DNA from: a virus
Lineage: Duplodnaviria; Heunggongvirae; Uroviricota; Caudoviricetes
DNA length: 64,000 nucleotides
Strand: one strand, 5' to 3'
Virus record (IMG/VR): IMGVR_UViG_3300046674_000485
Span: 15,734-79,733 of that record
Positions 656 to 53,630 of the stretch are shown here, in pieces. Below the pieces are notes generated by a model that was not told the origin of the DNA, ran no database searches, and saw nothing but the letters and a program-made list of their open reading frames with translations. Made by a program: the position numbers and the translations under genes. Position 1 is the stretch's first letter. The number at the start of each line of letters is the position of its first letter.

Positions 656-727
656 GCCAACATTTCTTTGTTTGGCTCGTTGCGCTGCGGTTGGATCTTG
701 TGCATAATCAAGCCTCAACAACAGGAG
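656..727 (+). promoter_or_regulatory. early promoter/operator copy 1
   Basis: GCCAACATTTCTTTGTTTGGC at 656-677, TTGGATCTTGTGCATAATCA at 691-710 and CTCAACAACAGGAG RBS box; near-identical copy sits at 1736-1780. Confidence 0.5.
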
Positions 728-735
728 ATCGCCGC

Positions 736-1188
736 ATGAAAGTCTCTCGCGCGCCCAACGGCATGCTGACCTACCGCTACTCGACCGGCCGGGGCGGCAT
801 GTCGTTCGCCTTCACCATGCTGTGCGAGGTGGGCCAGCCCTACCAGTCGGCAGCCAAGGCCCAGCTGGACGCCCTGCGCAGCCAGGGCTACGTCATCGAG
901 ACCCGCAACCTCGAGGCGAAGCCCTGGGTCGCCGACTTCGCGGTGAAGCCCAAGGTCGCCAGCCAGAGTGATCGCAACGCAAACCTGCTGGCCGCCCTGG
1001 GCGACCGCCTCGTGATGGTCTCGGTGGGCGAGCCCAAGCCCAAGGGCGCCATCGTCGCGCCGCTCTCGGTCATCTGCCCGGGCCACAAGTTCGGCCTGCT
1101 GGACGACGGCATGGGCGAGCTGGCCCGCGTGCCGGCCGATGCCTGGGCCGCCGCGCACTACCACGCAACCACCGGAGTCTCATCGTGA
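736..1188 (+). CDS. hypothetical protein, 150 aa
   Basis: in-frame ATG 736 of ORF 262..1188, preceded by AGGAG; the 262 start would run through the promoter element. Confidence 0.6.
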   Translation: MKVSRAPNGMLTYRYSTGRGGMSFAFTMLCEVGQPYQSAAKAQLDALRSQGYVIETRNLEAKPWVADFAVKPKVASQSDRNANLLAALGDRLVMVSVGEPKPKGAIVAPLSVICPGHKFGLLDDGMGELARVPADAWAAAHYHATTGVSS

Positions 1189-1400
1189 ACAAGTCCACCG
1201 CCCGCGAAGTGGCGACCATCAAGACGTTCGCCGCGTCCAAGGCCGCCGACCAGCGCACCTATGCAGCACGCACCCTGGCCGTGCTGCTGCGCGCCTGCAA
1301 GCGCAGCGACAAGCCCGTCCTCGAGGGGCTGATCGATTCCTGCGGCCTGCGCGGCCTGCTGCGCCAGGAGAACGGCGCCTGGGTGGCGGTCGACGTATGA
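1185..1400 (+). CDS. hypothetical protein, 71 aa
   Basis: ORF track; GTG overlaps upstream stop (GTGA); GC3-rich. Confidence 0.5.
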   Translation: MNKSTAREVATIKTFAASKAADQRTYAARTLAVLLRACKRSDKPVLEGLIDSCGLRGLLRQENGAWVAVDV

Positions 1401-1708
1401 GCAACATCGTCCTGACCCCGCACACCGCCCTGGTGAACGGCCGCATGACCGGCTTGGCCGGCTGCTCCCTGGTGCATCAGTCGCAGTGCCAGAGCGCCGC
1501 CACCTGCCTGCGCGCCGACCCGAAGCTGGCGCGCCCCGTCTACCCCGAGCCCGCCAAGCGGTCGATGGTGCAGCGCTGCTCGCAGTTCATCCCTGGGCCG
1601 ATTGGCCACGGAGCGCACGCCGCCAGCAAGAAGCTGGCCCGCCCCTGCAGCGCGCACGACCAGCTCGCCGGCGGCGTCTGCGGCAACTGCCTTTACCGCG
1701 AACCCTGA
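1397..1708 (+). CDS. Cys-rich hypothetical protein, 103 aa
   Basis: ATG 1397 overlaps stop (ATGA); frame of ORF 1139..1708; 8 Cys residues. Confidence 0.5.
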   Translation: MSNIVLTPHTALVNGRMTGLAGCSLVHQSQCQSAATCLRADPKLARPVYPEPAKRSMVQRCSQFIPGPIGHGAHAASKKLARPCSAHDQLAGGVCGNCLYREP

Positions 1709-1728
1709 CCGCTTTCGGTTGACTCGCC

Positions 1729-1800
1729 AACATTTCTTTGTTGTTATGCTTGCGAGTATGTTGGTTCTTGTGCATAATCAGGGGCTCGCAAATACCTCCA
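1729..1800 (+). promoter_or_regulatory. early promoter/operator copy 2
   Basis: TTGACT 1729-1734; GCCAACATTTCTTTGTTG 1736-1753; TTGGTTCTTGTGCATAATCA 1761-1780; AAGGAAA RBS before GTG 1811. Confidence 0.5.
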
Positions 1801-6310: not shown

Positions 6311-6600
6311 TGCCGACCGACGCCGAGATCATTGCGCTGCGCAAGGAGTGCTTCGGCGGCCGCTTCGGGGCGCCGGCGCGCACGCCCTGGGGCGACACGC
6401 TGAAGTTCGCCAGGGCGCTGCTCGAGCGCTACGGCAGGACCGACCTGACGCCGGACCAGATCGACGCCATCCTCCTGGCCGCCGGCAGCACCGGGGAGAA
6501 GCAGGTGTGGTTCACCCGGCCGGAGGCGCGGCGCGCCGTGATCGCTGCTGCTAGGCCAGCAGATCCGCAGGCGTCTTGCCCGCAGCCAGCGCAGCCTTGA
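6307..6600 (+). CDS. hypothetical protein, 97 aa
   Basis: ORF track; ATGA overlap; 3' 50 nt overlap the convergent H-NS-like gene. Confidence 0.4.
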   Translation: MMPTDAEIIALRKECFGGRFGAPARTPWGDTLKFARALLERYGRTDLTPDQIDAILLAAGSTGEKQVWFTRPEARRAVIAAARPADPQASCPQPAQP

Positions 6601-6907
6601 ACCACTCGGGCCTCTTGCCCATCCCGCCCCAGGCATTGCCGCTCTCGTCGCGGTACTTGATGGGGCGGCCTGCCTTTGCCGGCGGCTTGGCGGACTTGGC
6701 CCGCTCGATGGCTGCCCTGGCGATCGCCGGCGCCGTGCCGCGCTTGGTCTTGCGCCCGAAGATGTCGACCTCCGTCAGCCCGTAGTGGGCGACGGCCTCC
6801 TTGATCTTGGCGATCACCTCCGCCGCCTCGCTCTTGCGCAGCACCTCGGCCTGGGCCTGCAGTTGCGCGATCTGTTTCTGAAGCTGGGCCAGGGTCGTCT
6901 GTGCCAT
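6551..6907 (-). CDS. H-NS-family nucleoid-associated protein (betaproteobacterial BpH3-like)
   Basis: 118 aa: N-terminal coiled coil MAQTTLAQLQKQIAQLQ; C-terminal RPIKYRDESGNAWGGMGKRPEWF DNA-binding motif; only the last 118 codons of ORF 6551..7624 are real. Confidence 0.8.
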   Translation of the reverse strand: MAQTTLAQLQKQIAQLQAQAEVLRKSEAAEVIAKIKEAVAHYGLTEVDIFGRKTKRGTAPAIARAAIERAKSAKPPAKAGRPIKYRDESGNAWGGMGKRPEWFKAALAAGKTPADLLA

Positions 6908-6944: not shown

Positions 6945-6963
6945 CCAACATAAATCCGTTGGC
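6945..6963. promoter_or_regulatory. operator-like inverted repeat CCAACATAAATCCGTTGGC
   Basis: same GCCAAC...GTTGGC family as other early promoters; sits in the divergent region between the H-NS-like gene and the gene at 7004. Confidence 0.45.
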
Positions 6964-7003: not shown

Positions 7004-7207
7004 ATGAAGAAGATCCTCGCCGCCGCCCTCCTGGCGCTCGCCGCCTCCCAGGCCTTCGCCGTCACGGCGTTCTGGAATGGGCAGATCCAGTTCGTGACGA
7101 CCGTCTCCTATCAGCAGGGCGTGCGCTGCGGCTACACCTACCCAGGCGGGACCGTCACCCAGGTCTTCATCGGCGGCACCTGCCCCAACCAGATCGAAGT
7201 CCAGTAG
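7004..7207 (+). CDS. small secreted protein, 67 aa
   Basis: ORF track; N-terminal signal peptide MKKILAAALLALAASQAFA; RBS GGAGAAG. Confidence 0.55.
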   Translation: MKKILAAALLALAASQAFAVTAFWNGQIQFVTTVSYQQGVRCGYTYPGGTVTQVFIGGTCPNQIEVQ

Positions 7208-7224
7208 CCCCGGCCACCCCAGCG

Positions 7225-7251
7225 AAGCGCCCACCCCGGGCGCTTTTTTTT
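7225..7251 (+). terminator. rho-independent terminator
   Basis: AAGCGCCC-ACCCC-GGGCGCTT hairpin followed by an 8-T run. Confidence 0.7.
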
Positions 7252-7260
7252 CGCGCGCTC

Positions 7261-7345
7261 GCAACTTTCTGTTGTTGCGCCAATGAAAAGTGTTGACTCC
7301 CATTTGGTTCATGTGCAGAATCAAACCCGTCAACAACTTGTTGGC
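7261..7345 (+). promoter_or_regulatory. early promoter/operator copy 3
   Basis: GCAACTTTCTGTTGTTGC palindrome; TTGACT 7293-7298, 17 nt spacer, CAGAAT; TGTGCAGAATCA box; GTCAACAACTTGTTGGCGCAACAACAGGAAG. Confidence 0.55.
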
Positions 7346-7363
7346 GCAACAACAGGAAGATTC

Positions 7364-9352: not shown

Positions 9353-9600
9353 AAGCGAAGATGCGCCCGCGCTCGATCAAGCCATTCAACCTGCTGCGCA
9401 AGCCGCCGGTGTCGCGCATCCCTGGCGGCTACCCCGGGATCGTCGGCTGCACGCTCGGCCCCCTGCACGACAAGCACATCCCGATGCGCTTCGAGAGCGG
9501 CACCCTGGTGATCACGCTGCGCGGCGAGACCGGCCACTACACCCGCAAGGGCGAGTGGATCCAATTCAACGGCGCCGTTAACAATCAGTTGGCCGCTTAA
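9349..9600 (+). CDS. hypothetical protein, 83 aa
   Basis: ATG 9349 (ATGA overlap); frame of ORF 8980..9600. Confidence 0.45.
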   Translation: MKAKMRPRSIKPFNLLRKPPVSRIPGGYPGIVGCTLGPLHDKHIPMRFESGTLVITLRGETGHYTRKGEWIQFNGAVNNQLAA

Positions 9601-9648
9601 CATTCACTTGGTTTTAGAGCACAATCAACCATCACCACAGAGGCACAC

Positions 9649-12969: not shown

Positions 12970-13023
12970 GGCCAACAGTTTGTTGTGTTGGCTTGATTCT
13001 AAATGTTGGTTTGCTGCTGTCGA
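12970..13023 (-). promoter_or_regulatory. promoter with operator for the HU-to-YbcO sub-operon
   Basis: minus strand TCGACA, 16 nt spacer, TAGAAT, then GCCAACACAACAAACTGTTGGC operator before the HU ATG. Confidence 0.5.
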
Positions 13024-16931: not shown

Positions 16932-16973
16932 ACTATACCAACAGTTGGCTTAGTGAGCCAACGGTTTGTTGGC
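16932..16973 (-). promoter_or_regulatory. promoter with two operator copies upstream of the replication genes
   Basis: minus strand TTGGCT, spacer, TATAGT; operators CCAACAGTTGGC 16938-16949 and GCCAACGGTTTGTTGGC 16957-16973. Confidence 0.5.
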
Positions 16974-33085: not shown

Positions 33086-33113
33086 GCGTCTAAACGTTAC
33101 ATACAGGAGCGCC

Positions 33114-41300: not shown

Positions 41301-44300
41301 CAGTGCGATCGGCCGAGCGCGTAATGTCGGCCTGGGCCGGATCGAAGGCGCCGCTGTTGCCGGTGGCGCTCTTGATCTGGGTCGGATCGAAGGCGATGAA
41401 CTCGTTGCGACCGTGGTTCATCAGGCCGTCGTAGCCCAGGGCCTTCAGCTCGGCGACGTCATCCTCGGTCAGGAAGGCCGAGGACGTCTTGTCCGAGAGC
41501 ATCTTGTTCAGGCGGTCGAGCCGCTTGCCCATGCCGAGCACGCGAGCCACCACAGCCTTCACCTTGCCGACCGGGTCTTGGTCGATCACCAGCGGGTGCT
41601 TCAGGGACAGGTAGACCGGCATGACGTTCGCACCGTCGCGGCCACCGTAGACGGCTGCATAGCCGGGCGATGGGCTGAAGTAGAAGCCGTGCGTGTAGGT
41701 CGGCTCGCCCTTCTTCGCATCCAGGCTGAACTGCGAGAAGTCGCCGCTGGTGCCGTGATAGACGACGAGCGGCTTGCCCTGGTCGTCGACAACCTTGCTG
41801 TCGCCGAACCAGCGCTTGAACTCGGGGGTGCCGGTTACTCGGTCGCGGGAGAGGCGAGCTTCGCTGCCTGGACCTTGATCCTGGCCAGCTTCTCCGGATG
41901 CTCCCGGTTCACCTTGTCGAAGTGCGCCCGGGCCGCGGCCATCCGCTGCTCGCGCTCGGCCGGCGTCGGCGGCGGCACGCGTGGCCGCGAAGGTGTTCCA
42001 GTCGAGTTTTCCGTCATACGCTGCTCCGTCTTCGAGGTTCTGTTGAGGAATGCCCACCCGCTCCCAGAAGCCGCGGGCCTCGGTCACGATGTTGGACACA
42101 TCCAGGGTAACATTTTGTTGGCTGGCCAGCAAGGTTTTGATGGCGCGGACGCCGACGCCCTTGGAGCGCCCTTCCTTGTTGACCTCGATGTCGTAGAGCG
42201 CCTTGAGCTTTCCGTCCACGAACAGCAGATCGGTGTAGCCCAGGAACTCGCCGGTGGTCGGCTCGACCAGCTGCAGCTGGTACATCTTCTCGCGGCTCGG
42301 GTCCGCGGGGATGTAGTCGAAGCGCTCGGTCGGGTTGCCGTAGCCGATGAAGAGGTCGTGGCTGGAGAACTCCGGCGCGCCGGCCTCGTCGATCTGGGTG
42401 TCCACCTGGGGGCGCTCGATGGAGCGCTTGGCCGCCGGCAGGCTGCCCTGGCGCGCCTTCTCCGGCATGGCTGCGATGAAGTCCTTCATCGGCTTGTCGA
42501 CCTTGCGGTCGCCGGTGAGCGAGAACTCGACCGGCAGCAGCGCGGCCTTCTGGCGCGCGAAGCCGCGCTCCTTGGCCGACAGGGACTGGTCCAGGCCGCT
42601 GCGGAAATTGACCCAGCTGTTCTGGCCGCGGGTCTCCGACGTCAGCGCCCAGCGCGCCCAGGGGTTGGACGTGGTGGCCATGTGGTTCTTCCAGGCGGCC
42701 TCCTCCCCCTTCGGGCCGAACTGGGTCTCGCTCATGCCGTGCGCGAAGTAGTCGTGCACCGTGCGCAGCAGATCGTTCATCAGCAGCGGCGTGCCGTTGA
42801 CGTCCTCCAGGCCGGTCTGCTCGAGCAGCGGGTGGCCGGTGAAGTCGACGCCCTCGGGCCCGAACGACTCGGGGCCGGTGCCGTAGACGAACATGTGGTT
42901 GTTGTCGAGGATGTCCTGGCGCATGCCCTTGGAGTTGGCATAGGGCTCGCCGTCGCCCTTCCAGATCTCGACCTTGATCGGCAGCGCCTTGAACTGGGTG
43001 ACCAGCTCCTTGGCCAGCTCGGTGTAGGCGCGCTTGACCTGGGGGCGCTTCAGGTCGTTGTCGGGCAGCGCCTCGTAGGCGTCGCCGATCTCGCGCTGCA
43101 GGGCGGCCTGCTCGGGCGAGACCTCCGCGGCCTGTTCGAAGGCCTTGACCTTCTCCTGGCCGTTGAGGTACTCGGCTACTCGGCGCGCGGTTTGGCTTGC
43201 GGCCGACGGCCCTGGGGCAACGTCGCCACGAATTCGTTCGTATCCGATTGTTCCTTCACCGTGACCGTATGGCCAGAGGCGCGCAACCGACTGTTCAGAT
43301 CCAGAGCTGCTTTTTCCAAGGCGTTCAGCGGCTCGCTCGATGGCTTGCTTGAAGGCACTGATTTGTTCGTCATTGTTGACATCTCCAACGTAGTAAGCCT
43401 CGACGAAATCATCGCCGAACGTGAGCCCGTAGAGACCCGACTCGTCGATCACCTTCTGGATCTGCTTGGCGGTCAGCGCCTGCTTCAGATCCCAGCGATA
43501 CGACAGCGTCGCGTACGAGCCATCCTCGAACACGGTGCCCAGCTTGGCCGTCGTCGGCTTGCGCACATGCACCTGCTCTTGATTGAAATTATCCGCGAAC
43601 TTCGCCAGAGCCGCCAACACTTTGTTGGAGTCGTTGTCGGTGAACGTCACGGTCATGCCCAGCGACGGCTCCGAGGCGCCGCCGTACAGGCCGGTGCTGC
43701 GGTCGACCACCAGCTTGGCGGAGGTGCCGGCCATCAGGTGGCGCAGGCTGTCCGCGGCGATGTCCTGCAGCAGCGCGTGGGCGAACTTGTCGCCCTTGCC
43801 AGCCTTGACGTACAGCTCGGCGATGCCGGGGATGCTGTTGGTGGCGGCCGACAGGGTGACCGAGATTCGGTCCTTGGTGTCGGCGTTGGCCAGGATCCGC
43901 GCCTCGCGGTCGGCCGGGTTGTCGGCGATGGCCGAGTTGAACGACGTCGCGCCATCGGCGGCGAACGAGCCGGCGTCGGATCCCTCCCAGGCCATCGGCT
44001 CCATGCCGCCGGCCATGTTGAAGATCTCGTTGCGGGCCTCTGCGCGCGAGAGCTCGCCGGCCTTCACGCGGTCCCAGACGGCGCTGACCTTGGGGGCCAG
44101 CTGGCTCTTGCGGGCCGCCGGGAACAGTGCGCGCACCGCCTCCCAGGTGATCGACTGCATCTCGCGCGGCAGCACGTTGCGCTTGGCCGCCGCGTCGCGG
44201 TAGGCGTCGGCGAACAGGCCATAGCTGCCGCCGGCGCCGGTCTCGGCATTGCTGCCGGCCGTGCCGAAGTTGTCCTTGACCTCGGGCGTGTTGCCCGACA

Positions 44301-47300
44301 GCGCCTTCACCAGCGCCGCGGCGATCGCGTGCGTGTCGATGGTGACGTGGCCCTGCTCGCTCTGCGGCGCCACGATGTTGTTGTAGAAGTTGCGCACCTT
44401 GTGCTCGCCGCCGAGCATCTTGTCGATGTTCTTGACGGAGCCGCTGCGCAGGATCGAGACGGCCTTGCCGATGGTGCTGAAGCCGCCCCAGGTGATCGAG
44501 CTCTCGCCGTCGTCGTTCTTGGTGACGTAGTCGCCGAAGCCGCCCTCGGGCGTGATCAGGCGGTAGCGGCGCTCGAAGTAGGTCTCGTCGAAGATCCGCG
44601 TGAAGCGCGCGGCATCCTCGAGGTCCATGCTCTCGAGCGTCTCGCCCTCCAGGCGCTTCGCATCGGCGATCAGGCGCGCGCGGTCGTCGCGGTCCTTGAC
44701 CGTCTTGGCGGCGCCGACGTAGCTCTGCACCCAGGCGGTCATGTCCTTGGTCCACACCTCGCGGCCGCGGTTGCGGTTGATGTCGATGACGCGCTCGCCC
44801 AGGCTGACGTTCTTGAACCAGTCCATCTGCGGGCTGAGCACGGCCAGGACGCCGGCGGCTTGGCGCTCGGTGATGTCGTACTTCGTGGTCCAGTCGTTGG
44901 CGATGCGGTTGGCACCGTCGTACCAGAGGCGCGCGCGCTTGGAGATGTCGGCCGGCACGAGGTCGTGCAGCCACAGCAGGTTGTCGACGACGACCTCGTG
45001 GAGCTCGGCCATCAGCTTCTTCGGGTTGCCCTTGCCCGACAGCGTGTTGTAGGTGCGCAGGGCCTTGGCGATCGCGTCGACGTGGCGCTCGGAGGCGCGG
45101 ATGTCGTCGCCGTCGATGACCCAGTTCTCGGTGTAGCTCTTGTCCTCGGAGCCCTTCGCGCGCGGCACCGTGGTGCTGAGTTCGATGCGCGACTCGGGGT
45201 CGGTGAAGTCTTCGCGCTGGCGGGACTGGGTGATGTCGCCGGACGCGCCGTCGAACTCGCCGTTGTTTCCGGTGGCGCTCTTGATCTGCTCCGGATTGAA
45301 GGCAACCCAGTCGTCGCGGAGGTCGCCGAAATCCGTGTCGCTGTCTCGGATGACGATGCCATCGTTGCCGGCTGCCTGCAGCGCCTTGCGCAGGGCGGTG
45401 GCCGAGCCGGCCTTCTTCAGCGCACTCTCGAACGCGTCGTGACCCTGGTATTCCTTGGGGGACTTGATGGACAGGAAGACATCCATGACGCGCGCTTCGC
45501 CACCGCTTTCCTCGGCAGCATCCACCGAGAAACTGATCGCGGCGCTGCGTGCGTCGGAGTCGGCAAGTTCATGCTCGTCGCTGCTGGCTGCGGCGGCTGT
45601 GAACCATGCGCCGATGTCGCCAGGGTAGTCGGTGCCCTCGCGCCCGGTGCGGAACTCGGAGAGATCCACGGCGGTCCCGTGGTAAGCCACCAGCGGCTTG
45701 CCGTTGGCGCCCACCGCCTTCGAGTCGCCGAACCACTTGTCGAACTCGGCAGGGGTCTCGCGCTCGGCGCTGCGGCGCACGGCCATGCCCTCGGGGACGA
45801 CGGGCTCGCTGCCGGCCGCCACGAGCGCCTTGTTGATGTCGTCGCGGCCCACCAGGGTCGCGGTCGTGCCTGGGCCCTGCGGGTGGTCGTCGAAGGTGAG
45901 CGTCGCGCCGCGGCCGCTGGCCTTCGTGATCATGCCCTCATTGTCGCCCTTCTTGGCGCGCTGGCCAACGAGCTGGTCCTTGATGTGGCGGAGGTCGCCG
46001 GCCACCGCTTCAGGGCGATAGCGCTTCCAGAACTCGAAGGCGTCGTCGCTCAGCGAGATGGCGGGCTTGAGCTGCTTGCCGGCCTTCTCCTCGATCTGCG
46101 CGTACATCTGGCGCGCGATGCCGCGCTGGCGGTAGTCTGGATGGACGGCCGACTCCATGATGACGAAGTCGCCGTTCGAGTCGTTCCAGGCGTGGGCACG
46201 ACCGACGACGCGCTTGCCGACCTTGGCCACCGCGGAGTCTTTCATGCCGCCCTGCTCGACGACAACCGCCTTGCGCGCGGCGCTCTGCTTGGCCTGCTCG
46301 ATCTGCGCCTGCATCTCCGGCTGGCTCAGACCCTGGTCACGCACGTAGTCGGCCACCGCGGTGGTGAACGCGGCGCGGATCTCGGCCATGTTGTCGACCA
46401 GCTCGGCCGACTTGTAGTTGCCCTGGCGGATCGTCTTCGTCAGGCGCTCGAGCGCGCCGTTGATGAAGGCGGCCAGCTGGGCGATGATGCCCTGCGCCTG
46501 GGCGCCGTTGTCCTGGCGGATCTTGGCGAAGACGTCGTTCCAGAACGAGCCGTCGGTCATCAGGTCGCCGCCCAGGTCGGAGGTGACCTCCTCGAGGACG
46601 GAGCCCTGGTCGTAGCCCAGGTCGGTGTAGACCTTGCGGGCGCCGGTCTTCAGGCGCGCAGCCACGACCGCCTCGAGCGCAGCGTGCGCCTTCGGGTTGT
46701 CGGCCTTCAGCTGGTGCATGAGTTCGTGCCCGAACACGGCCAGCGGCGAGATGCCGGTCGCTTCGTTCAGGTAGATCAGGCCCGACGCGCCAGGGACGAC
46801 GAAGCCGTCGCCCACAGTGTTGCTCGGGTCGCTGAAGAACTCAACCTTCTTGCCGAAGAGCGCGCCGATGCCGCGCAGCATGGCGGCCTGGGCCTTGGTC
46901 ACGCGCAGCGCCTTGCCGCCGCGGGCAGCCGATGCGGTCTCGGGCAGCTCGCTGGCGCGCACGCGCTGGAGCTCGAGCTGCTTGCCGTTGACGTTGATGG
47001 TGAAGTGCTGGGCGCCCGGGGCGATCGGCTCCGGCGCAGTCATCACCACCGGCGCGGCCGGCTTCTTCGAGGTCTTCGGGTTCTTGGCCCAGGCCTTGAA
47101 CTCCTCGACCGTCATCTGGGTCACGGCGCGGCGGCGGCGCGGGCCCGAGCCATCGCTGAAGTGGGCGTCGTAGATCTTCTCGGCCTGGGCCTGGGTGGTC
47201 ACGCCGACCACAGCCTTCACCTCGTCGAACGAGCCGTCGTCGTTGTACTGGTCGAAGACGAACACCGGCGCGCCGTGGCGCGGGTTCGGCGCGACGTAGA

Positions 47301-50300
47301 GGTCGACCGGGTCGCCGTCGGCGCCTTCGGTGTGCAGCAGCTCGCCGTAGTCGGCCGTCATCTTGACGGACCAGGGCTTGCCGCCAGGATCCTCGCCGCT
47401 GCGGGTGGTGCCGATCGGGTTCTCGATCTTGAGGTCCATGCCGTCGTGGCGGGCCTTGACCGCATCGCCCTCCTCGCCCGACGACTTGTCGGCGCGCTCG
47501 CGGTACTCGGCGGCGATCTGTGCGCGCGCAAGCACGGCGTCGGCCGCGCCGTCCAGGCGGAAGCGCTGGCGGTGGGCGTTGACCATGTCGAAGGTGCCGT
47601 CGTCGTTGCGCACGACGTGGCGGTAGCCGTTGTCCACCAGCTGCCGCAGGGTCGCCTTGCGCTTGCGGTGCACGGCGGTGCCTGGGCCCGCGGGGATGGC
47701 CACGCGCGGCGCCGGGACGCTCTCGCCGGCGCGCTCGGCGGACTGCTTGACCTCGGCCTCGCGCAGGCTGGCCAGCTCGGTCTTGTCGGCGGCCGACAGG
47801 TTGAACGGGCTCGAGGCTGCGTTCTGCAGGATCGCCATCTGCGCGGCGGTGTAGCGGGCGCGCGCGGCGTCCGCGACGGCCTTCTGCTCGGCGGTGCGCA
47901 GCGCGGGGATGGTCTTCAGCGCAGCCAGCGTGGAGTCGACGCTCGGCGCGACGGCAGCGCGCGGCGCCGGTGCGGCGGCGGGCGGGCCCTGGCGGGTGCC
48001 CTGGCCAACCTCGACGGACGAGCTCGGGCTGCGGGCATGCGCGGCCTCGCGCTCGGCGGTCTCGCTGAGCACCGGCGTCTGCGGGTTGTAGCGCGTGGAC
48101 TCGCGCGGCTTATTGCCGAGGGCGATGCCCGTGGCCTGCGTCAGCTTTTCGTCGGTCGACAGCGGCGCGGCGAGCGTCGGGTCGATGCGGTCGTAGGGCT
48201 TGCCCAGGCCTGCCTCGTGGAAGATCTGCGCTTCCGCGGGCGAGGCGACGCCACCGCGCTCGGCGACAGCCTTGTGGGCGGCGGTGATGACGGCCTGACG
48301 CGGGGCGTCCTCGGCCTTGCGGCTGGCCTCGCTGCCGGCCAGGGCGGCACCCTCGAGGCGCTCCTGTTCGCCGGCCGCAAGGGGTTGCGCAACGGGGGTT
48401 GCGGGGGTTGCTTCAGGGGTTGCGACCGGCGCGCCCAGGCGCTGCTCGCGGTTGGTCTGGGCCTGGGCCTGGGCGGAGGCCTTGTCGGCTGCCGTCGAGG
48501 CGCCGTTGATCTGGTCCTGCAGATCCTTGTCGCGGTCGGCGCCGGCGCGGCGCTCGGACGGCGTGGTGGGCGCGCTGCGCGGCACGTCGGTGGCGGCTGC
48601 CGTCTCGGTCGGCGCGACGGTCGGAGCCACCTGCTGGCCAGCCCACTCCATGGCGAACTCCAGGCGCGACAGGGCCTGCTCGCGCGCGGCGGCCGGCGTG
48701 CTCGGGCTCTGGGCGATCGCGAGGTCGTTGACGAACTTCGTGGCCCCGGCCTTGTCCTCGGCCTGCAGCTTGGCGATGACGCCACCCTCGCGCGCGCTGG
48801 ACGCGATGGCGCGGGCCTTGTCCATGATCGGATCGGCCTGGGGCGCGTTGGCGGCAGCCTCCTGGGCCGCGGCAGCCTGCTCCTGGCCAACCTGCTGCGC
48901 GATGGCGTCGGGCGTGTTGCCGGCCATGGCGGCCTTCGACAGCGAGCCGCCGGCGGCCGCAGCATCGGCCACGGGGGCCAGCGCTGCGGTGCGCTGGTGG
49001 AGCGCGGTGCCGGCGCCGCCGGCTGCGCCACCGAAGGCGCCCACGGCGGCGGAGTCGATCCGCTCCTTCTCAGCTTCGGGCGTGAAGAGATCCTTCTTCG
49101 CGCCGAACTGCTCGATGCCGGTCTGCACGTACTCGGTGCCGCCCTGGGTCACGACGCCCTTCGGCGCTTCGGTGGCGAGGCGCTTGGCGTAGCTGCCGGC
49201 GGTCGAGCCTTCCTTCATGCCCAGCAGGCCCTTGGCCATCATCAGGTCGGCAGCCGTGTCAACGCCGGCGGCGGCCAGCGCGGAGGCCCACACGCGGCCG
49301 ATGTCGACCTGTTCGCCGGTCTTGCCGGCCTGCTCGACGGCGTCGCCGTAGATCGAGCCGCCTTCCTGGCGGATGTTGTTCGCGAAGATGGACGACGCGG
49401 CACCCATCTGGCCAGCGACCTTGCCGGCGGCAGCGGCGCCGATCTGCTCCTTCGTCATGGCCTTGCCGGCCTCGCTGGCGGAGAGCTTGGCCATCTCCTT
49501 CTCGACCAAGCCCTCGGCCAGGGTCTTGACGGCTGCCTTGCCGATGCTCTTGCCGATGATCGCGCCGACGCCGCCGGTCACGACCGACTCGGCCACCTGA
49601 TAGCCCAGGTAGCCGATGGCGTAGGCGGCCCACTGCGACAGGTCGCCGTCCTTGCCGATGGCGTCGGTGAACGAGGAGTGCTCGCCGAACAGCTTGCCGG
49701 CTTCCTTGTTCTTGCCCTCGGCGAACGCCATCAGGTTCTGCTGCACGGCCGGCGCGATGCCGGCGGTGTTCAGGATCAGTGAGCCGACCTGGGCGGCCAG
49801 CGCCTGGGAGCTCTTGGCGCCGCCGAGCGCGGAGTTTTTCAGCGTGCCGAGGAACGTCTTTTCGTCGGGCAGCGCATCGCGCGAGTAGGGATCCACCCCG
49901 GGCTGCTGCTGTGCCTGGGCGCCACCGCCGTCGACCGCGGCCGCACCGGGCTGCACGCCGGCCTTGCGCGCGGCGGCAATGATGGATGGCACGTAGTTCT
50001 GGGTCTCGGCCGGGAGGAAGCGCAGCCACGCGTCGGGCGTGCCGGCCATCTTCGCGCGAGAGAGCGCGGAGGTCATGGCGCCGGGGCCGGCGTTGTAGGC
50101 GGCCAGGGCCTTGAGCTCGTCGCCACCGAAGTCGGCGAGCTGCTTGTTGAAGTAGGCCGAGCCGAGCGCGGCGTTGTAGGCCTTGTCGGTGCGGTAGCGC
50201 AGCTCATCGTACGGCAGGCCAGCAAGGCGAGCGGCCTCGGGCGCCGTCCCCGGCATGACCTGGGCAACGCCGATGGCACCCTTGGGGCTGGTGATGACCT

Positions 50301-50532
50301 TGCCGGCGGCATCGAACTGCTTGTTGCCAGACTCCTGGCCGAGCAGATAGTTGAACAGCGGGTGATCAGCGCCCGCGCGCGGCTGTGCGGCGGGCGCGGC
50401 CGACTGGCCTGCCAGCTCGAACTGGAAGTCGGCAGCCGGGGCTGGTGCCGCCGTCGACTGTGCGGCGGGCGACGCGGCGATTGCGGGGGCTGCTGCGGCG
50501 CCGGGCGCCAGTTCGAATTGGAAATCGCTCAT
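35308..50532 (-). CDS. giant 5074-aa multi-domain polyvalent (DarB-like) virion protein with N-terminal lytic transglycosylase
   Basis: single uninterrupted ORF; residues 55-190 are an SLT domain (ESGN...AIGVAQVMP...AYNAGPG); HELMH zincin motif at 46714-46728; GNAT-like segment near 46003-46215; ParB/Srx-like GHEGRHR near 40453-40665; three repeated modules. Confidence 0.85.
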   Translation of the reverse strand: MSDFQFELAPGAAAAPAIAASPAAQSTAAPAPAADFQFELAGQSAAPAAQPRAGADHPLFNYLLGQESGNKQFDAAGKVITSPKGAIGVAQVMPGTAPEAARLAGLPYDELRYRTDKAYNAALGSAYFNKQLADFGGDELKALAAYNAGPGAMTSALSRAKMAGTPDAWLRFLPAETQNYVPSIIAAARKAGVQPGAAAVDGGGAQAQQQPGVDPYSRDALPDEKTFLGTLKNSALGGAKSSQALAAQVGSLILNTAGIAPAVQQNLMAFAEGKNKEAGKLFGEHSSFTDAIGKDGDLSQWAAYAIGYLGYQVAESVVTGGVGAIIGKSIGKAAVKTLAEGLVEKEMAKLSASEAGKAMTKEQIGAAAAGKVAGQMGAASSIFANNIRQEGGSIYGDAVEQAGKTGEQVDIGRVWASALAAAGVDTAADLMMAKGLLGMKEGSTAGSYAKRLATEAPKGVVTQGGTEYVQTGIEQFGAKKDLFTPEAEKERIDSAAVGAFGGAAGGAGTALHQRTAALAPVADAAAAGGSLSKAAMAGNTPDAIAQQVGQEQAAAAQEAAANAPQADPIMDKARAIASSAREGGVIAKLQAEDKAGATKFVNDLAIAQSPSTPAAAREQALSRLEFAMEWAGQQVAPTVAPTETAAATDVPRSAPTTPSERRAGADRDKDLQDQINGASTAADKASAQAQAQTNREQRLGAPVATPEATPATPVAQPLAAGEQERLEGAALAGSEASRKAEDAPRQAVITAAHKAVAERGGVASPAEAQIFHEAGLGKPYDRIDPTLAAPLSTDEKLTQATGIALGNKPRESTRYNPQTPVLSETAEREAAHARSPSSSVEVGQGTRQGPPAAAPAPRAAVAPSVDSTLAALKTIPALRTAEQKAVADAARARYTAAQMAILQNAASSPFNLSAADKTELASLREAEVKQSAERAGESVPAPRVAIPAGPGTAVHRKRKATLRQLVDNGYRHVVRNDDGTFDMVNAHRQRFRLDGAADAVLARAQIAAEYRERADKSSGEEGDAVKARHDGMDLKIENPIGTTRSGEDPGGKPWSVKMTADYGELLHTEGADGDPVDLYVAPNPRHGAPVFVFDQYNDDGSFDEVKAVVGVTTQAQAEKIYDAHFSDGSGPRRRRAVTQMTVEEFKAWAKNPKTSKKPAAPVVMTAPEPIAPGAQHFTINVNGKQLELQRVRASELPETASAARGGKALRVTKAQAAMLRGIGALFGKKVEFFSDPSNTVGDGFVVPGASGLIYLNEATGISPLAVFGHELMHQLKADNPKAHAALEAVVAARLKTGARKVYTDLGYDQGSVLEEVTSDLGGDLMTDGSFWNDVFAKIRQDNGAQAQGIIAQLAAFINGALERLTKTIRQGNYKSAELVDNMAEIRAAFTTAVADYVRDQGLSQPEMQAQIEQAKQSAARKAVVVEQGGMKDSAVAKVGKRVVGRAHAWNDSNGDFVIMESAVHPDYRQRGIARQMYAQIEEKAGKQLKPAISLSDDAFEFWKRYRPEAVAGDLRHIKDQLVGQRAKKGDNEGMITKASGRGATLTFDDHPQGPGTTATLVGRDDINKALVAAGSEPVVPEGMAVRRSAERETPAEFDKWFGDSKAVGANGKPLVAYHGTAVDLSEFRTGREGTDYPGDIGAWFTAAAASSDEHELADSDARSAAISFSVDAAEESGGEARVMDVFLSIKSPKEYQGHDAFESALKKAGSATALRKALQAAGNDGIVIRDSDTDFGDLRDDWVAFNPEQIKSATGNNGEFDGASGDITQSRQREDFTDPESRIELSTTVPRAKGSEDKSYTENWVIDGDDIRASERHVDAIAKALRTYNTLSGKGNPKKLMAELHEVVVDNLLWLHDLVPADISKRARLWYDGANRIANDWTTKYDITERQAAGVLAVLSPQMDWFKNVSLGERVIDINRNRGREVWTKDMTAWVQSYVGAAKTVKDRDDRARLIADAKRLEGETLESMDLEDAARFTRIFDETYFERRYRLITPEGGFGDYVTKNDDGESSITWGGFSTIGKAVSILRSGSVKNIDKMLGGEHKVRNFYNNIVAPQSEQGHVTIDTHAIAAALVKALSGNTPEVKDNFGTAGSNAETGAGGSYGLFADAYRDAAAKRNVLPREMQSITWEAVRALFPAARKSQLAPKVSAVWDRVKAGELSRAEARNEIFNMAGGMEPMAWEGSDAGSFAADGATSFNSAIADNPADREARILANADTKDRISVTLSAATNSIPGIAELYVKAGKGDKFAHALLQDIAADSLRHLMAGTSAKLVVDRSTGLYGGASEPSLGMTVTFTDNDSNKVLAALAKFADNFNQEQVHVRKPTTAKLGTVFEDGSYATLSYRWDLKQALTAKQIQKVIDESGLYGLTFGDDFVEAYYVGDVNNDEQISAFKQAIERAAERLGKSSSGSEQSVARLWPYGHGEGTIGYERIRGDVAPGPSAASQTARRVAEYLNGQEKVKAFEQAAEVSPEQAALQREIGDAYEALPDNDLKRPQVKRAYTELAKELVTQFKALPIKVEIWKGDGEPYANSKGMRQDILDNNHMFVYGTGPESFGPEGVDFTGHPLLEQTGLEDVNGTPLLMNDLLRTVHDYFAHGMSETQFGPKGEEAAWKNHMATTSNPWARWALTSETRGQNSWVNFRSGLDQSLSAKERGFARQKAALLPVEFSLTGDRKVDKPMKDFIAAMPEKARQGSLPAAKRSIERPQVDTQIDEAGAPEFSSHDLFIGYGNPTERFDYIPADPSREKMYQLQLVEPTTGEFLGYTDLLFVDGKLKALYDIEVNKEGRSKGVGVRAIKTLLASQQNVTLDVSNIVTEARGFWERVGIPQQNLEDGAAYDGKLDWNTFAATRAAADAGRARAADGRGPGALRQGEPGASGEAGQDQGPGSEARLSRDRVTGTPEFKRWFGDSKVVDDQGKPLVVYHGTSGDFSQFSLDAKKGEPTYTHGFYFSPSPGYAAVYGGRDGANVMPVYLSLKHPLVIDQDPVGKVKAVVARVLGMGKRLDRLNKMLSDKTSSAFLTEDDVAELKALGYDGLMNHGRNEFIAFDPTQIKSATGNSGAFDPAQADITRSADRTGTPAFKAWFRESKIVDADGKPKVVYTGTSADVDFKSFKAPKNGIWFTDSTEGASQYAVENDSMGHIFEGGKYVPKNTASRVIPVYLSIQNPKVYAEWPDVIKYASNYKKAQGALWEQLKRAGHDGVVFRDATHGDVFVAFESAQVKSAIGNDGGFDPSKKDITRSRDRAAWDGDRIDQLMSKYAYTQDDNRTKAYAGWVSPKDFLAATTPAAERARLESEATPLDAAELKKQSQEIFLEGKIEDDSPMRGSFKVTGHEGRHRMMALAKAGVERVPVVYYVGTTDDAKPLTSLFATPQRWAHDKAEQGFLTGTLTPISWAHRAELKEKFMRPDASVKFSAEREHLIIHAGSDFDQLDAGYLGKGEGAGGMQIRPLGNGLYGYLARDAEEAERAVKQARAYLKYAPTKERAIHAFRVKLGAGDVQFGQVWDDELQTAADRESRADWAAANEIPAGPERLAAFEALDKKYPRSRLAPTRPFRTEVLSGPNLIEIAANDLSRLERAGKWPAETDDKKIASDLRTMIDDSAAGGEMDFDRAAAILKKGGIALDKTQGVPSLGRPDVYGLRKWGTQEKVDPKTLTGPAALAWERLQAGDAKRSADRGIYYSQLSSALAAVPERLATQAAPAWAQWLKANAGKMGVKADELEWSGVFDMLKMRGRDKISKDELATWVDENGVQVGETVLGRDPSKDAAMREAFAGTGYKIAVDDYGDAAHFIDPDGEDIDYRDLPQHLKDAVNKYGPETVETKYATYTVPGGDNYREVLITLPDDSTTDAIAKRLFGKRWVDLTDEENVAAVKEMKSLPDRPKPYTSGHWDQKNILAHLRLDDRTDADGNKVLFVNEIQSDWGQQAKRIGFAKKLDVTVRKSTDETDDEDTYEVVVAGNVIGFVHADDDALALKKAHRTYGESELTKGAPAGPFVADTKSWVALAMKRALVEAARGDYDKVAFINGKQAADLYSLRKQIDQVVYYDDKTLVARKDGANVFKKQVESDSELDDIIGKEVARKLLDTKRDMNSQRILSGVELEVGGEGMKAFYDGIVPQVARDLAKKLGGKVGETSVGAKKTKYIIEEVWNDTGNVDWVAEVDSRAAAEAKLSAIEEDDDYGESTYRIAEEVEDSAAAAANQLAIDITPAMREQLEGGAPLFSKERTTGHSGRAYTPEQEAMFRNIGRTTEEKSLKERLKEARQDIGKKMAQGLVDQFRPLKDLGGEAYTLARLSKGAAGAFEALLHHGKLKLVDNAYDADMTGGFIEKVGNPLGAELEDFMQWIAANRAEKLSKEDREHLFTAEDIAAGKSLADGQLARPYTMQDGSTTTDRAAAYRDSLEKFNEFNKNTMDMAEQSGLIDGEARKFWESEFYVPFYRVSEEDGAFMGSKIKGGIARQQAFKKLKGGKDKLSSDLLSNTLQNWSHLIDAAAKNRAARATLEAAQNVGVAIEASEDAVREMGKSTGNKNGVVWFMDGGKQRHFLVEDPYVLAAINSLEYAGLKGPLMDALSTMKHWLTAGVTASPAFKVRNLIRDTIQAIGTSGLSYNPVKNIADGLKHSARDSQEYVSALASGGLIRFGTMMDGNASERIRQLVKRGVKESTILNNPEKVKAFYDKFVDPAVQAYHEIGNRGEEINRSALYSQLRKQGVGHAEASLMARDLMDFSMQGTWASIRFLTQVVPFMNARLQGLYKLGRAAQEDPRRFAMVTGAVALVSVALMAAYGDDEDWKKREDFDRDGFWWFKLGGTAFRIPKPFEIGAIATLAERGVELFTNKEFTATRFRDRLLHIASDNLSMNPIPQAVKPIIDVYSNKDAFTGRPIETAGMEKLKSEYRYNSGTSMVARAASTALNSVTSTVGAEGLSPVQIDSLLKGYFGWLGTFVVSGADMAIRPMTNEPTRPEADYLRVVTQGIVRSLPEPSSKYVSSVYEQAKALEQAYATHRQLMKEGKAEDAKAFAKDHAEELARYTKVEHVKQAQAKANQSIHDIERSAASPAEKRDRIQAIRDRQSDNAKAIY

Positions 50533-52208: not shown

Positions 52209-52217
52209 GTCTTTTCC

Positions 52218-53000
52218 TTAGTCGCCGATGCCGCCGCTGCCGGAGAACATTGGCGTGTACGCCGCGGAGTTCGTGTCGGCCCCCACGTTCGAGTAGGTGA
52301 TGCCGCCACCGCCGCTGCCGATGCCGCCGCCGTTGGCCGCGCCGCCGCTGCCCGAGCCGAGCCAGCTCTGGAAGGCCTTGGACTGCGTGAGGCCACCCAG
52401 GGCTTGGCCGAACTGGCCGATGCCATTGGCCTCGTGGGCGTACTGGCTGTTGGCGGCAGCGATCTGCTGGCCCATCACGCCGGAGCCGGTGGCCGATGCG
52501 GCACCCAGGCCGCTCATGGCGGATGCCGGCATGCCCTTGCCCAGGCTCAGCGCGTTGGTCATCTTGGCGTCGCCGCGGGCGATCACCTTCTCGCGCGCAT
52601 CGTTCTGGCCGGTGGCGGAGCTGGCCGCCTCGGCGAGGTCGATGGCGCCCGATTGCTGCAGGTACTTTTGGCTCTGCGGGTTGACGCCCGACTTGGCCAG
52701 CTGCGAGCGGGCGTTGTTGAAGGCCGCGGCGTTCGCGGCATTCACCTGACCGGCGGCCTTGTTCTGGTTCGCGATCGAGCCGGCACCGCGGGCCTCGTCG
52801 ACGTACTCGTTCTCGAGCGGCGCGTACGTGTCGAGGTATCGCTGCCACTGCTGCTTGGCCATGTCGAGCTGCTGCGCCTCGATCATCTGCTGGCCGGCGG
52901 CGGCCTCCCTGGTGGCGGAGGCCTGCTTGCCTGCGGCGTTGTTGGCCATGACGCCGCCAACGACGGCTGCGCCAACGGCGCCTACTGCTGCAACACTCAT
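52218..53000 (-). CDS. Gly/Ala-rich virion protein, 260 aa
   Basis: in-frame ATG 53000 of ORF 52218..53144; ATGA overlap. Confidence 0.55.
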   Translation of the reverse strand: MSVAAVGAVGAAVVGGVMANNAAGKQASATREAAAGQQMIEAQQLDMAKQQWQRYLDTYAPLENEYVDEARGAGSIANQNKAAGQVNAANAAAFNNARSQLAKSGVNPQSQKYLQQSGAIDLAEAASSATGQNDAREKVIARGDAKMTNALSLGKGMPASAMSGLGAASATGSGVMGQQIAAANSQYAHEANGIGQFGQALGGLTQSKAFQSWLGSGSGGAANGGGIGSGGGGITYSNVGADTNSAAYTPMFSGSGGIGD

Positions 53001-53557
53001 GTGGATGCCTCTTCGAGTTGGAGCGTCTGCTGCAGCGGAGGCAGGGACGCGAGATAGCTGTCGACGGACTTGTAGGTGAGCAAGTCGCCGATCTGGTCGG
53101 AGGTCAGGCCCGACGGCACATCGACCGCCACGAAGGTGGTCCACTTGCAGCGGGTGTGCGCGTACGCCGCGCGCTTGGTGCCTGCGGGCGTCACGACCGT
53201 GAAGCCTGCGCTGACGCGCACCATGCCGTGCTCGCCGAGCATCGACATCTCGCCCTCACTGAGGACGTTGATCTGGGGGTGTCGGTGGATCTTGCCGATG
53301 ATGATGGTGTCGGCCGGCGCGATCATCTCGCGGGCCACCATCCCCGGCACGACGTAGTGCCGGACTGGCATGTCCTGCTGTGGGAACTTCAGGAGCTCCT
53401 GCTCGAGGAACTCGAGGTGCCGCAGCGTGTGGGCTTCCGGCAGGTAGCCGATCGACTCGTTGCCGTAGATCCGGGTGATCATGGCCTGGAGGATGGGCGT
53501 GACATCGCCCTGCTCCTGGGGCAGCTCGATCACTCCGTCATCGGCCAACACGATCAT
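52997..53557 (-). CDS. hypothetical virion-associated protein, 186 aa
   Basis: ORF track; downstream of an internal operator-bearing promoter. Confidence 0.5.
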   Translation of the reverse strand: MIVLADDGVIELPQEQGDVTPILQAMITRIYGNESIGYLPEAHTLRHLEFLEQELLKFPQQDMPVRHYVVPGMVAREMIAPADTIIIGKIHRHPQINVLSEGEMSMLGEHGMVRVSAGFTVVTPAGTKRAAYAHTRCKWTTFVAVDVPSGLTSDQIGDLLTYKSVDSYLASLPPLQQTLQLEEAST

Positions 53558-53593
53558 GAATAGAAGCCCTCTGCGCAGTGGTTGCGCGCGAGG

Positions 53594-53630
53594 ATTCTAC
53601 TTTTTGCGACGCCAACAACACCCCGTTGGG
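53594..53630 (-). promoter_or_regulatory. internal promoter with operator inside the structural module
   Basis: minus-strand -10 TAGAAT (plus ATTCTA 53594-53599) and operator GCCAACAACACCCCGTTGGG 53611-53630. Confidence 0.45.

Follow-up and report, generated by a model that had tools for sequence, protein, structure and literature searches.

The window analysed here, a stretch of 64,000 nucleotides (nt) from an uncultivated tailed phage (positions 15,734 to 79,733 of IMG/VR record IMGVR_UViG_3300046674_000485), carries a recurrent 17-base-pair (bp) dyad, GCCAACA-www-TGTTGGC, where w is A or T. Nearly every early transcription unit has such a site, and several of these units are insulated by terminators. 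We propose, with a probability of about 65%, that the dyads are operators of a single phage-encoded regulator, the 145-amino-acid (aa) XRE-family protein encoded at 20997-21434. The same dyad lies beside the same XRE gene in about 35 syntenic relatives, which comprise metagenomic phages and Burkholderiales prophages, and control loci do not show this association.

In the approximately 4.2 kilobases (kb) of intergenic DNA of the window, CCAACA is the commonest hexamer, with a density 8 times that in coding sequence, and pairs of the form CCAAC-N0-30-GTTGG occur 11 times in the window, where 1.03 would be expected. A scan of all spacings returned CAAC-N5-GTTG 10 times (0.53 expected) and CAAC-N8-GTTG 6 times (0.62 expected); N28 was marginal (4 against 0.55), and no other spacing was enriched. 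An initial annotation, made from the letters of this DNA alone, had described half-sites at twelve loci, all of which indeed carry them, and had proposed, as a refuting check, a comparison of intergenic regions with coding sequence of the same GC content. In a corresponding comparison, based on 1000 shuffles of the regulatory DNA itself (56% GC, A/T-richer than coding sequence), the motif remains enriched: CCAACA/TGTTGG was counted 23 times against 3.4, CAAC-N5-GTTG 9 times against 0.09, and CAAC-N8-GTTG 5 times against 0.11, and none of the 1000 shuffles matched the observed counts. The idea of a genuine operator family linked to promoters is supported.

A symmetrised position weight matrix (PWM), built from 29 distinct sites, yielded the 17-bp consensus given above, with an invariant core CAAC-N5-GTTG and an A/T-rich centre whose bases otherwise vary. 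With a strong site defined as one of at least 14 bits, the window contains 16 strong sites (0.34 expected), spread from 656 to 43629, and a weaker one of 13.1 bits at 53614-53630. Thirteen of the strong sites lie in regulatory DNA, 2 lie inside a giant open reading frame (ORF), and the last is an overlapping second register of the dyad at 24201. At least 13 regulatory regions, dispersed over 53 kb, carry sites.

The half-sites had initially been described as variably spaced. Rather, N5 is the main spacing and N8 a minor class, which is enriched in the window but not in the relatives. Four of the 6 N8 sites can also be read as N5, perfectly or with one mismatch, with right arms (C/T)TTGTTG, leaving only those at 6946 and 20895 as purely N8. 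Given these readings and the lack of N8 enrichment in relatives, N8 was mostly rejected as an independent operator class, and half-site spacing is essentially fixed at N5 with degenerate arms. A literature search by half-site strings returned only primer sequences.

Promoters carrying the dyad

Transcription starts were inferred from hexamers, and a scan for consensus sigma-70-like promoters was run over 1-36 kb. Seven of its 8 hits have a dyad within approximately 60 bp, the sole hit without one being the ParA promoter at 33053-33080. The candidate regulator, the promoters, and the associated dyads, which as candidate operators are listed without strand, are as follows:

20997-21434, plus strand: XRE-family (HTH_3) regulator gene, 145 aa, candidate operator-binding repressor, from Pfam HTH_3, fold matches, and conservation
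20869-20897, minus strand: leftward early promoter (inferred), TTGCCC (20897-20892), 17-nt spacer, TAGAGT (20874-20869); read by eye, 8/12, below the scan threshold
20874-20890: N5 dyad ACCAACATTCTGTTGGC, located within the 17-nt spacer of the preceding promoter and reaching its -10; PWM 21.4 bits
20894-20911: N8-class dyad GCAACATAAACAGGTTGT, from the N8 list, adjoining the preceding site, upstream of the XRE gene
16961-16932, minus strand: replication-operon promoter TTGGCT-N18-TATAGT, from the scan; the downstream gene 16063-16869 is the replication initiator
16957-16973: dyad GCCAACGGTTTGTTGGC, over the -35 of the replication-operon promoter; PWM 20.1 bits
16938-16950: short N1 dyad ACCAACAGTTGGC, which takes up the spacer of the replication-operon promoter as far as its -10
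13023-12996, minus strand: HU-gene promoter TCGACA-N16-TAGAAT, from the scan; a dyad covers its start region
12971-12987: dyad GCCAACAGTTTGTTGTG, over start site and leader of the HU-like gene, downstream of the -10 and upstream of the ATG (12969); PWM 21.0 bits
21661-21677: operator-like site GCCAACAAAATTTTGTC, right after the XRE terminator, at the head of the tRNA/structured-RNA block; PWM 20.0 bits
23642-23669, plus strand: rightward promoter TTGGCA-N16-TATACT, sigma-70-like, 10/12, preceding Zn-ribbon gene 23705-24241 and the recombination operon
23630-23646: dyad O1 GCCAACTATCTGTTGGC, over the -35 of the rightward promoter; PWM 21.3 bits
23649-23665: dyad O2 TCCAACGATCCGTTGTA, lying in the spacer and partly over the -10; PWM 16.3 bits, with a perfect CAAC-N5-GTTG core
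24216-24244, plus strand: promoter TTGACG-N17-TAAGAT, from the scan
24201-24220: dyad ACCAACAAAAACTTGTTGAC, perfect as N8, one mismatch as N5; overlaps the -35 TTGACG of the preceding promoter
29008-29024: best-scoring site GCCAACAACTTGTTGGC, an 8+1+8 palindrome directly after a T-run, upstream of gene 29073-29537; PWM 22.5 bits
29031-29047: weaker second site GGCTACACTCTGTTGGC, overlapping a -10-like TACACT (29034-29039); PWM 13.9 bits
6945-6963: N8-class dyad CCAACATAAATCCGTTGGC, lying where the H-NS-like gene (6551-6907, minus strand) and gene 7004-7207 diverge
53611-53630: dyad GCCAACAACACCCCGTTGGG, of the N8 class but enclosing an N5 core at 53616; it occupies a gap between virion-block genes and is followed 11 nt downstream by a -10-like TAGAAT (53599-53594, minus strand)
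42106-42122: strong operator-like site GGTAACATTTTGTTGGC, inside the 5074-aa ORF, with A/T-ending codons CAA CAA AAT GTT; PWM 18.6 bits
43613-43629: strong operator-like site GCCAACACTTTGTTGGA, inside the 5074-aa ORF, with codons AAC AAA GTG TTG; PWM 21.5 bits

The dyad at 20874-20890 fills the spacer of the leftward early promoter, homologues of which read TTGGCA-N18-TACAAT in relatives. The initial annotation had placed a site at 20875-20889 within this spacer, which is correct, although the sequence that it quoted is that of the reverse strand. Its description of 29008-29024 as a perfect palindrome also stands. Two tandem dyads lie over the -35 and the spacer/-10 of the rightward promoter; the second of these (23649-23665) was absent from the initial site list, as were the sites at 9577-9593, 42106-42122, and 43613-43629, though the sites that were listed are all present. 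The consensus promoter scan flagged no promoter at the 53611-53630 dyad. The two dyads within the giant ORF lie 1.5 kb apart with no neighbouring promoter visible, and could be chance occurrences, roadblocks, or internal regulatory sites.

Several units start right after a terminator-like hairpin or T-run (at approximately 627-648, 7224-7252, 21629-21651, and 28991-28997, and as a minus-strand hairpin beside 16975), so that the layout is a repeated terminator-operator-promoter cassette. Across the phage family, a -10-like hexamer begins 0-3 nt past the dyad core at 36 of 78 distinct sites, with smaller peaks for dyads over the -35 and for dyads just downstream of the -10. These registers would be occlusion positions, and fit repression by occlusion. 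Spacer activation in the manner of MerR was considered and rejected, as the spacers are of normal length (16-18 nt, against the overlong 19-20 bp) and the MerR Pfam hit scored 20 bits, below the cut-off of 28.2.

A separate element recurs in the left block, where a 20-nt box, TTGGWTYWTGTGCAKAATCA, is found in 4 copies (at 691, 1761, 7304, and 9608; 0.01 expected), all on the plus strand. Alignment of the surrounding sequences revealed a shared order of degenerate dyad, -35, 17-nt spacer with the box, CA(T/G/C)AAT -10, and CAACAAC-AGGAG leader:

680-710, plus strand: cassette copy 1, TTGCGC, 17-nt spacer, CATAAT, including the 20-nt box TTGGATCTTGTGCATAATCA (691-710)
656-672: operator-like site GCCAACATTTCTTTGTT, found by PWM (16.3 bits) and alignment; left arm perfect, right arm degenerate
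715-727, plus strand: leader element TCAACAACAGGAG, a half-site-like CAAC followed by a Shine-Dalgarno sequence
1750-1780, plus strand: cassette copy 2, TTGCGA-N17-CATAAT, box 1761-1780
1726-1745: operator-like site GCCAACATTTCTTTGTTGTT, paralogue of 656-672, reading as a perfect N8 dyad
7293-7323, plus strand: cassette copy 3, TTGACT-N17-CAGAAT, box 7304-7323
7260-7276: upstream site CGCAACTTTCTGTTGTT; PWM 16.4 bits
7329-7345: downstream site GTCAACAACTTGTTGGC, centred approximately 9 bp downstream of the inferred start; PWM 21.4 bits
9597-9627, plus strand: cassette copy 4, TTAACA-N17-CACAAT, box 9608-9627 with 3 mismatches
9577-9593: site GTTAACAATCAGTTGGC, just upstream of the -35; PWM 16.7 bits

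The box (TGTGCATAATCA), which had been taken as part of the operator family, is instead the spacer and -10 of a promoter cassette that was duplicated within the window phage. Its 11-nt core GTGCAKAATCA has a single match among 56 loci, and the family-wide feature is the dyad, the box cassette being confined to this phage. Of the earlier claims on this region, that of four shared boxes holds in number, but the fourth one named (24230-24246) is only loosely similar; the duplication of about 55 nt is real (656-712 and 1726-1782 are identical at 44 of 57 ungapped positions, 77%), but its second copy begins at 1726 rather than 1736. The element described near the ribosome-binding site, (T/G)CAACAAC(A)AGGAG, was found at 715-727, with similar copies at 7346-7359 and 24252-24267. 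The dyad centres of the cassettes at 656, 1726, 7260, and 9577 lie approximately 51, 51, 60, and 47 bp upstream of the inferred starts.

At four promoters (690, 1760, 13005, and 29042), an orphan GTTGG was further observed that is separated from the distal CCAAC by exactly 28 nt (centres 33 bp apart, or approximately three helical turns); two of these four N28 cases are paralogues. Half-sites spaced in this way may reflect cooperative or looped binding.

The XRE protein in the window phage and its relatives

Relatives were located through XRE homologues matching the pattern [VI]R[YH]WE[SA]GRS, a first set of which showed 42-51% identity to the window protein. They share a gene order in which the XRE gene is divergent from a replication arm encoding an initiator, a DnaC-like loader, DUF1367, and HU. 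On its other side, most have an ORF-free gap of 1-2 kb, which contains tRNAs in some, followed by genes for a protein of approximately 400 aa, RecT or ERF, YqaJ, and SSB.

N5 was the sole enriched spacing in six of these relatives, with 21 occurrences against 1.6 expected. The dyads lie at corresponding promoters: in L004, GCCAACAGTTTGTTGG followed by CATAAT precedes the 400-aa gene; in L001, GGCCAACAGAAAGTTGAAC followed by TAGAAT precedes the replication genes; and in L003, L004, L007, and L008 a dyad separates the -10 of the HU gene from its ATG. Fifteen further relatives were found in IMG/VR, thirteen of which were counted and together contain 51 perfect cores in 183 kb, whereas control loci that share only a generic helix-turn-helix (HTH) domain contain 1 core in 497 kb, despite their lower GC content. 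Even on short metagenome contigs (1.9-2.1 kb), the XRE gene is surrounded by 1-4 sites. A generic inverted-repeat search on the relatives was less useful, as GC-rich chance palindromes swamped the signal.

Among GTDB genomes, prophages with XRE relatives were found in Polynucleobacter, in Rhizobacter, and in a Burkholderiales metagenome-assembled genome, which points to hosts among the Burkholderiales and to a temperate lifestyle. The Polynucleobacter prophage (51% GC) has 6 cores, at least 3 of which read TTGTTG...dyad...ATAAT. Ralstonia phage RPZH6, which served as a negative control, was rejected as a relative for lack of synteny and contains zero dyads.

The XRE protein was matched to Pfam HTH_3 (PF01381) with 45.4 bits, against a cut-off of 23, and the nearest PDB entries to its family profile are the DNA-binding domains of 434 and P22 C2 (E 2e-8 to 4e-6). 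A Pfam scan of the 145-aa protein returned HTH families only, with no S24 peptidase (autocleavage) domain; induction, if any, must therefore differ from the cleavage of lambda CI. The gene forms a unit of its own, with a terminator after it at approximately 21629-21651 and dyads on both flanks. In the relatives, residues 1-62 are nearly invariant, including Q30, R33, W35, E36, G38, R39, and S40 of the recognition helix, and the C-terminal half is divergent, comprising a short helical-looking stretch that is conserved and, after it, a basic tail. Some relatives (among others P0021, P0023, and P0016) end in basic tails that resemble AT-hooks (KKRGRPRK, RPRAR), unlike the tail of the window protein; such tails could contact the A/T-rich operator centre or its flanks.

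When the early proteins of the window were searched against the relatives with tblastn, only one sequence-specific DNA-binding protein, the XRE protein, proved to be present in every relative. No such conservation was seen for the first leftward gene, the Zn-ribbon protein, or the HTH proteins at 16950, 18748, and 34248. The latter three had been put forward alongside the XRE protein at 20997, itself named as the probable repressor; their lack of conservation counts against them, and the XRE protein emerges as the best candidate binder from its presence in all relatives, its nearly invariant HTH domain, its association with the dyad, and the change in relative L014 described below. HU and H-NS-type proteins have no sequence specificity, and Pfam and PHROG scans of 1-36 kb revealed no other repressor-like gene.

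Positions 29, 30, and 34 of the family align to Q28, Q29, and Q33 of 434 repressor, which we take to be base-contacting residues, so that these positions are predicted contacts. L014, which is fully syntenic, has an XRE protein with E29, T30, and W34. It contains no CAAC-N5-GTTG at all; instead, 12 sites of the form NAAC-N5-GTTN, reading (T/G/A)AAC-N5-GTT(A/C/T) and with A/T-rich centres, were found against 0.38 expected, some of them preceding the HU gene and the homologue of the 491-aa gene. The outer base is C in 3 of 24 half-sites of L014, compared with 23 of 34 in the window. Predicted base-contact residues and the outer base of the putative operators thus appear to have changed together, coinciding at positions that a 434-like model predicts.

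Proposed regulation and alternative explanations

In the mechanism that we propose, the XRE protein would bind the 17-bp dyad, probably as a dimer, and would exclude host RNA polymerase from sigma-70-type lytic promoters, because most sites occupy the start site, the -35, or the part of the spacer next to the -10. Predicted to be controlled in this way are three large operons (leftward early, replication, and rightward recombination), the operon that follows SSB, the gene for the HU-like protein, the block of tRNAs and structured RNAs, the four paralogous promoters of the accessory genes, and one promoter in the virion block. If the protein is expressed in lysogeny, as we presume, the ParA promoter, having no site, would stay active, so that maintenance genes would be on while lytic units would be shut directly, without a cascade. 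A site-free ParA promoter fits a prophage in this state.

Several observations weigh against this reading. The purely N8 sites (6946, 20895), the orphan half-sites spaced by 33 bp (N28), the sites in the giant ORF, and the upstream dyads of the cassettes all fall outside the model. Simple occlusion is not obvious for the four cassette dyads in particular, which lie upstream of the polymerase footprint at a position typical of activators. A promoter for the XRE gene itself was sought and not identified, and the window covers part of an 85.5-kb contig, which makes a second repressor elsewhere possible. The covariation of protein and operator rests on one lineage, L014, and hence on a single evolutionary event. 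A second link, between E29 and AAAC half-sites, was seen in three loci but did not hold once more were added: L006, L010, and L012 prefer AAAC/GTTT half-sites (e.g., GCAAACTGTTTGTTTGC) and have E29, but L017 and L025 have E29 with CAAC.

The position of the cassette dyads raises the possibility that the XRE protein is a dual regulator, or a Cro-like regulator of the lytic phase, that represses at core-promoter dyads and activates or loops at dyads 47-60 bp upstream, in the cassettes and maybe at its own promoter through 20894-20911. For the cassette promoters such a role is plausible: apart from the dyad distances listed above, their -10 hexamers begin with a non-canonical C (CATAAT, CAGAAT, CACAAT), as in weak activator-dependent promoters, and their spacers hold an orphan GTTGG 33 bp from the distal half-site (N28, 4 against 0.55). 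The XRE gene is also the first of the rightward arm, which is the place of Cro in lambdoid phages, and its product has no S24 cleavage domain in Pfam. Across the family, however, occlusion registers dominate, and the gene is separately terminated and flanked by dyads. Some relatives are integrated as prophages and no other repressor-like gene was found in 1-36 kb, which favours a maintenance repressor. As a general account, we therefore consider the dual or Cro-like role unlikely, though it is the most serious competitor to the XRE protein acting as repressor.

We consider it rather improbable that another protein binds the dyad, be it a global regulator of the Burkholderiales host or a small unannotated phage protein, and that the XRE gene merely travels with the backbone. 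The link between XRE protein and sites is indirect, the correlation of E29 with half-site type failed, and the core is nearly constant even though the XRE proteins of relatives are only 40-50% identical overall. This divergence is C-terminal, however, with the HTH domain nearly invariant, and no second specific DNA-binding protein is common to all relatives. The motif is retained by phages that range from 51-68% GC and probably differ in host, and in L014 the dyads and the predicted contact residues of the XRE protein shift together.

The palindromes could also act as RNA, since GCCAAC-N5-GUUGGC could fold into a small stable hairpin (6-bp stem, 5-nt loop), reminiscent of boxB/nut or of elements for leader processing or stability. 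Some sites do lie in leaders (7329-7345, 12971-12987, and those at the HU gene of relatives), and several follow terminators, where they would be included in any read-through transcript. Many others, however, are located in spacers or over the -35, upstream of plausible starts, and the loops are variable except for being A/T-rich. Conservation concerns the sequence of the half-sites and not their pairing: among 66 sites, 36 one-sided mismatches and 0 compensatory changes were counted at core positions 3-6, a count that is biased by the selection of sites with the weight matrix. On these three grounds (site positions upstream of inferred starts, variable loops, and the biased count of compensatory changes) an N-type nut/boxB reading was rejected, and a role as RNA hairpins is very improbable.

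Finally, the enrichment is scarcely credible as a by-product, without a dedicated binder, of duplicated cassettes and -35-like TTGGC/TTGAC in A/T-richer DNA: four promoters are clear paralogues and the right arm GTTGGC overlaps the -35-like TTGGCA (23642) or TTGGCT (16961), but most sites are not in the duplicated cassette, the geometry is fixed, and an artefact of duplication or composition is effectively refuted by the intergenic-composition null, the control loci, and the N5 enrichment in relatives, about 35 of which independently carry the same dyad in unrelated flanks.

Genomic context and comparison with known systems

The window, of 65-70% GC, is part of a JGI metagenome contig. Codon-usage gene calling combined with Pfam and PHROG scans divided it into four blocks:

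1-10.7 kb, plus strand: small accessory genes, including a GDSL-lipase lipoprotein; the H-NS-like gene 6551-6907 lies on the opposite strand
10.7-20.8 kb, minus strand: early-left arm with RNase H, replication initiator (16063-16869), DnaC/IstB-like loader, DUF1367, and HU-like gene (12694-12969)
21.0-35.3 kb, plus strand: XRE/HTH_3 gene (20997-21434), a 2-kb ORF-free block with three tRNAs, then Zn-ribbon (23705-24241), 491-aa protein, RecT, YqaJ exonuclease, SSB, SPFH, ParA, and HTH_36
35.3-64 kb, minus strand: virion block, including the 5074-aa ORF

A DNA search of a phage collection with two 12-kb stretches of the window gave zero matches, and the best match to the XRE protein in that collection showed only 44% identity over 43% of the protein. 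Similarity to cultured phages was found at the protein level and is only mosaic: a virion protein of 642 aa is similar to proteins from Stx, Vibrio, Ralstonia, and Burkholderia phages, the tail fibre is similar to fibres of Achromobacter phages, and matches of the replication initiator to known phages are confined to its N-terminal 98 aa. With the 491-aa early protein as query, no relatives were recovered from viral and genome collections, and the one close database match to this protein was the contig from which the window derives.

Both the H-NS-like gene, which encodes an H-NS C-terminal domain, and the HU-like gene are phage-encoded, and a dyad is found in each promoter region (N8 at 6945-6963, N5 at 12971-12987). 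The giant ORF (35308-50532, minus strand) has a third-position GC of 0.88, and residues 57-186 of its product are approximately 65% identical to lysozyme/transglycosylase domains in virion proteins of Delftia phages and Bordetella phage BPP-1, on which basis the product is probably an ejected giant virion protein.

Within the ORF-free block (21900-23500), the only tRNAs are three, for Gln, Met, and Cys. The block also contains at least 5 modules of 87-140 nt, each closed by a 14-20-bp stem; in most of them the ends are conserved, as either CCAUCA...UGAUGG or AUCAAGAG...CUCUUGAU. Folding z-scores of the modules range from -3.9 to -6.8, no Rfam family matched, and one module has a T-arm-like GGTTCGATTCC. 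Relative L004 contains comparable boxed stems at approximately 10800-11100. The modules may constitute an undescribed structured-RNA or tRNA-processing array.

Two features are reminiscent of plasmids. Two perfect DnaA boxes (TTATCCACA), inverted and 77 bp apart, lie at 34910-34918 and 34987-34995 in an A/T-rich gap after the HTH_36 (replication-initiator-like) gene, and this gap is likely a plasmid-type origin. The gap at 32755-33060, upstream of ParA (33063-33806), is dense in short repeats and palindromes (TACCCTAGATA / TATCTAGGGTA, GATACAT / ATGTATC); its resemblance to a partition site or iterons suggests that the element may be kept as a plasmid prophage.

The nearest structural counterparts of the XRE protein are the repressors of 434 and P22. 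Phage 434 cI/Cro operators read ACAA-N6-TTGT, and those of P22 are 18 bp long. The window system shares with them the HTH_3 type of DNA-binding domain, for which they are the best matches among solved structures, as well as a dyad-symmetric operator with 4-bp outer half-sites, an A/T-rich non-contacted centre, and overlap with the core promoter. It differs in its half-site CAAC, in its 5-bp centre and 13-bp core (against 14), in the lack of an S24 autocleavage domain, which also sets it apart from the lambda type, and in having at least 13 dispersed regulatory regions with single or double operators rather than two operators of three sites each. A second HTH protein, of the Cro type, was not found.

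In its layout, the system is closer to that of phage P1, whose C1 repressor, which is not an HTH_3 protein, acts on many dispersed and asymmetric 17-bp sites, each closing a lytic unit. The window phage likewise has one candidate repressor and many scattered operators, but its sites are symmetric and the protein belongs to HTH_3. It also carries plasmid-type maintenance genes, with ParA at 33063-33806 and DnaA boxes at 34910 and 34987. Counterparts of Coi, Lxc, and immI/immT of P1 were not seen in the window, although no search was aimed at them.

Genome-wide sites are also known from cluster A mycobacteriophages, in which stoperators of the L5 gp71 type are asymmetric, orientation-dependent, and bound by monomers, with many in transcribed regions, where they block elongation (PMC9283540, PMC6550527). 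The window resembles them in having sites beyond the immunity region, including two strong ones inside a 15-kb gene. Its sites are symmetric, however, and almost all lie at promoters, with 2 of 16 strong sites deep inside a gene. The c repressor of Streptomyces phage phiC31 acts on conserved 17-bp inverted repeats, many of them intergenic and beside early promoters or terminators, and these promoters do not follow the sigma-70 consensus. Here the parallel is a high-GC temperate phage with a recurrent 17-bp inverted repeat, the repressor families being unrelated. The 434-like C repressor of Rhizobium phage 16-3 tolerates two spacings, ACAA-N4-TTGT and ACAA-N6-TTGT, and offers a precedent for the N5 and N8 classes, yet dual-geometry binding is not needed in the window, where most N8 sites have an N5 reading and N8 is not conserved in relatives.

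Taken further, the comparison yields a broader picture that we hold as possible but tentative. In it, one small 434-like XRE protein without a cleavage domain would gate essentially all lytic units (at least 12 promoters, the tRNA/structured-RNA array, and a virion-block promoter), several of them as terminator-operator-promoter cassettes, across a hitherto undescribed family of temperate Burkholderiales phages, of which some are integrated and the window phage is probably plasmid-like. This would amount to P1-style distributed immunity on a symmetric 434-type operator, with no antitermination cascade, in which the many operators hold the HTH domain nearly constant and in which L014 would have acquired a new specificity through Q30T and Y34W, with all its operators changing as well.

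The regulatory map is concrete and testable for an uncultivated phage lineage, giving the promoters, the position of the operator on each, and a candidate protein. The relatives moreover form a natural specificity series, with CAAC in most members, AAAC in some, and T/GAAC in L014 with T30 and W34, which could teach rules of 434-like recognition or give orthogonal repressor-operator pairs for high-GC hosts. Most likely, this is an ordinary kind of phage switch with unusually many scattered sites, which reveals no new mechanism; it would add another example, from phages of Betaproteobacteria, of immunity exerted through many dispersed operators rather than two operator clusters.

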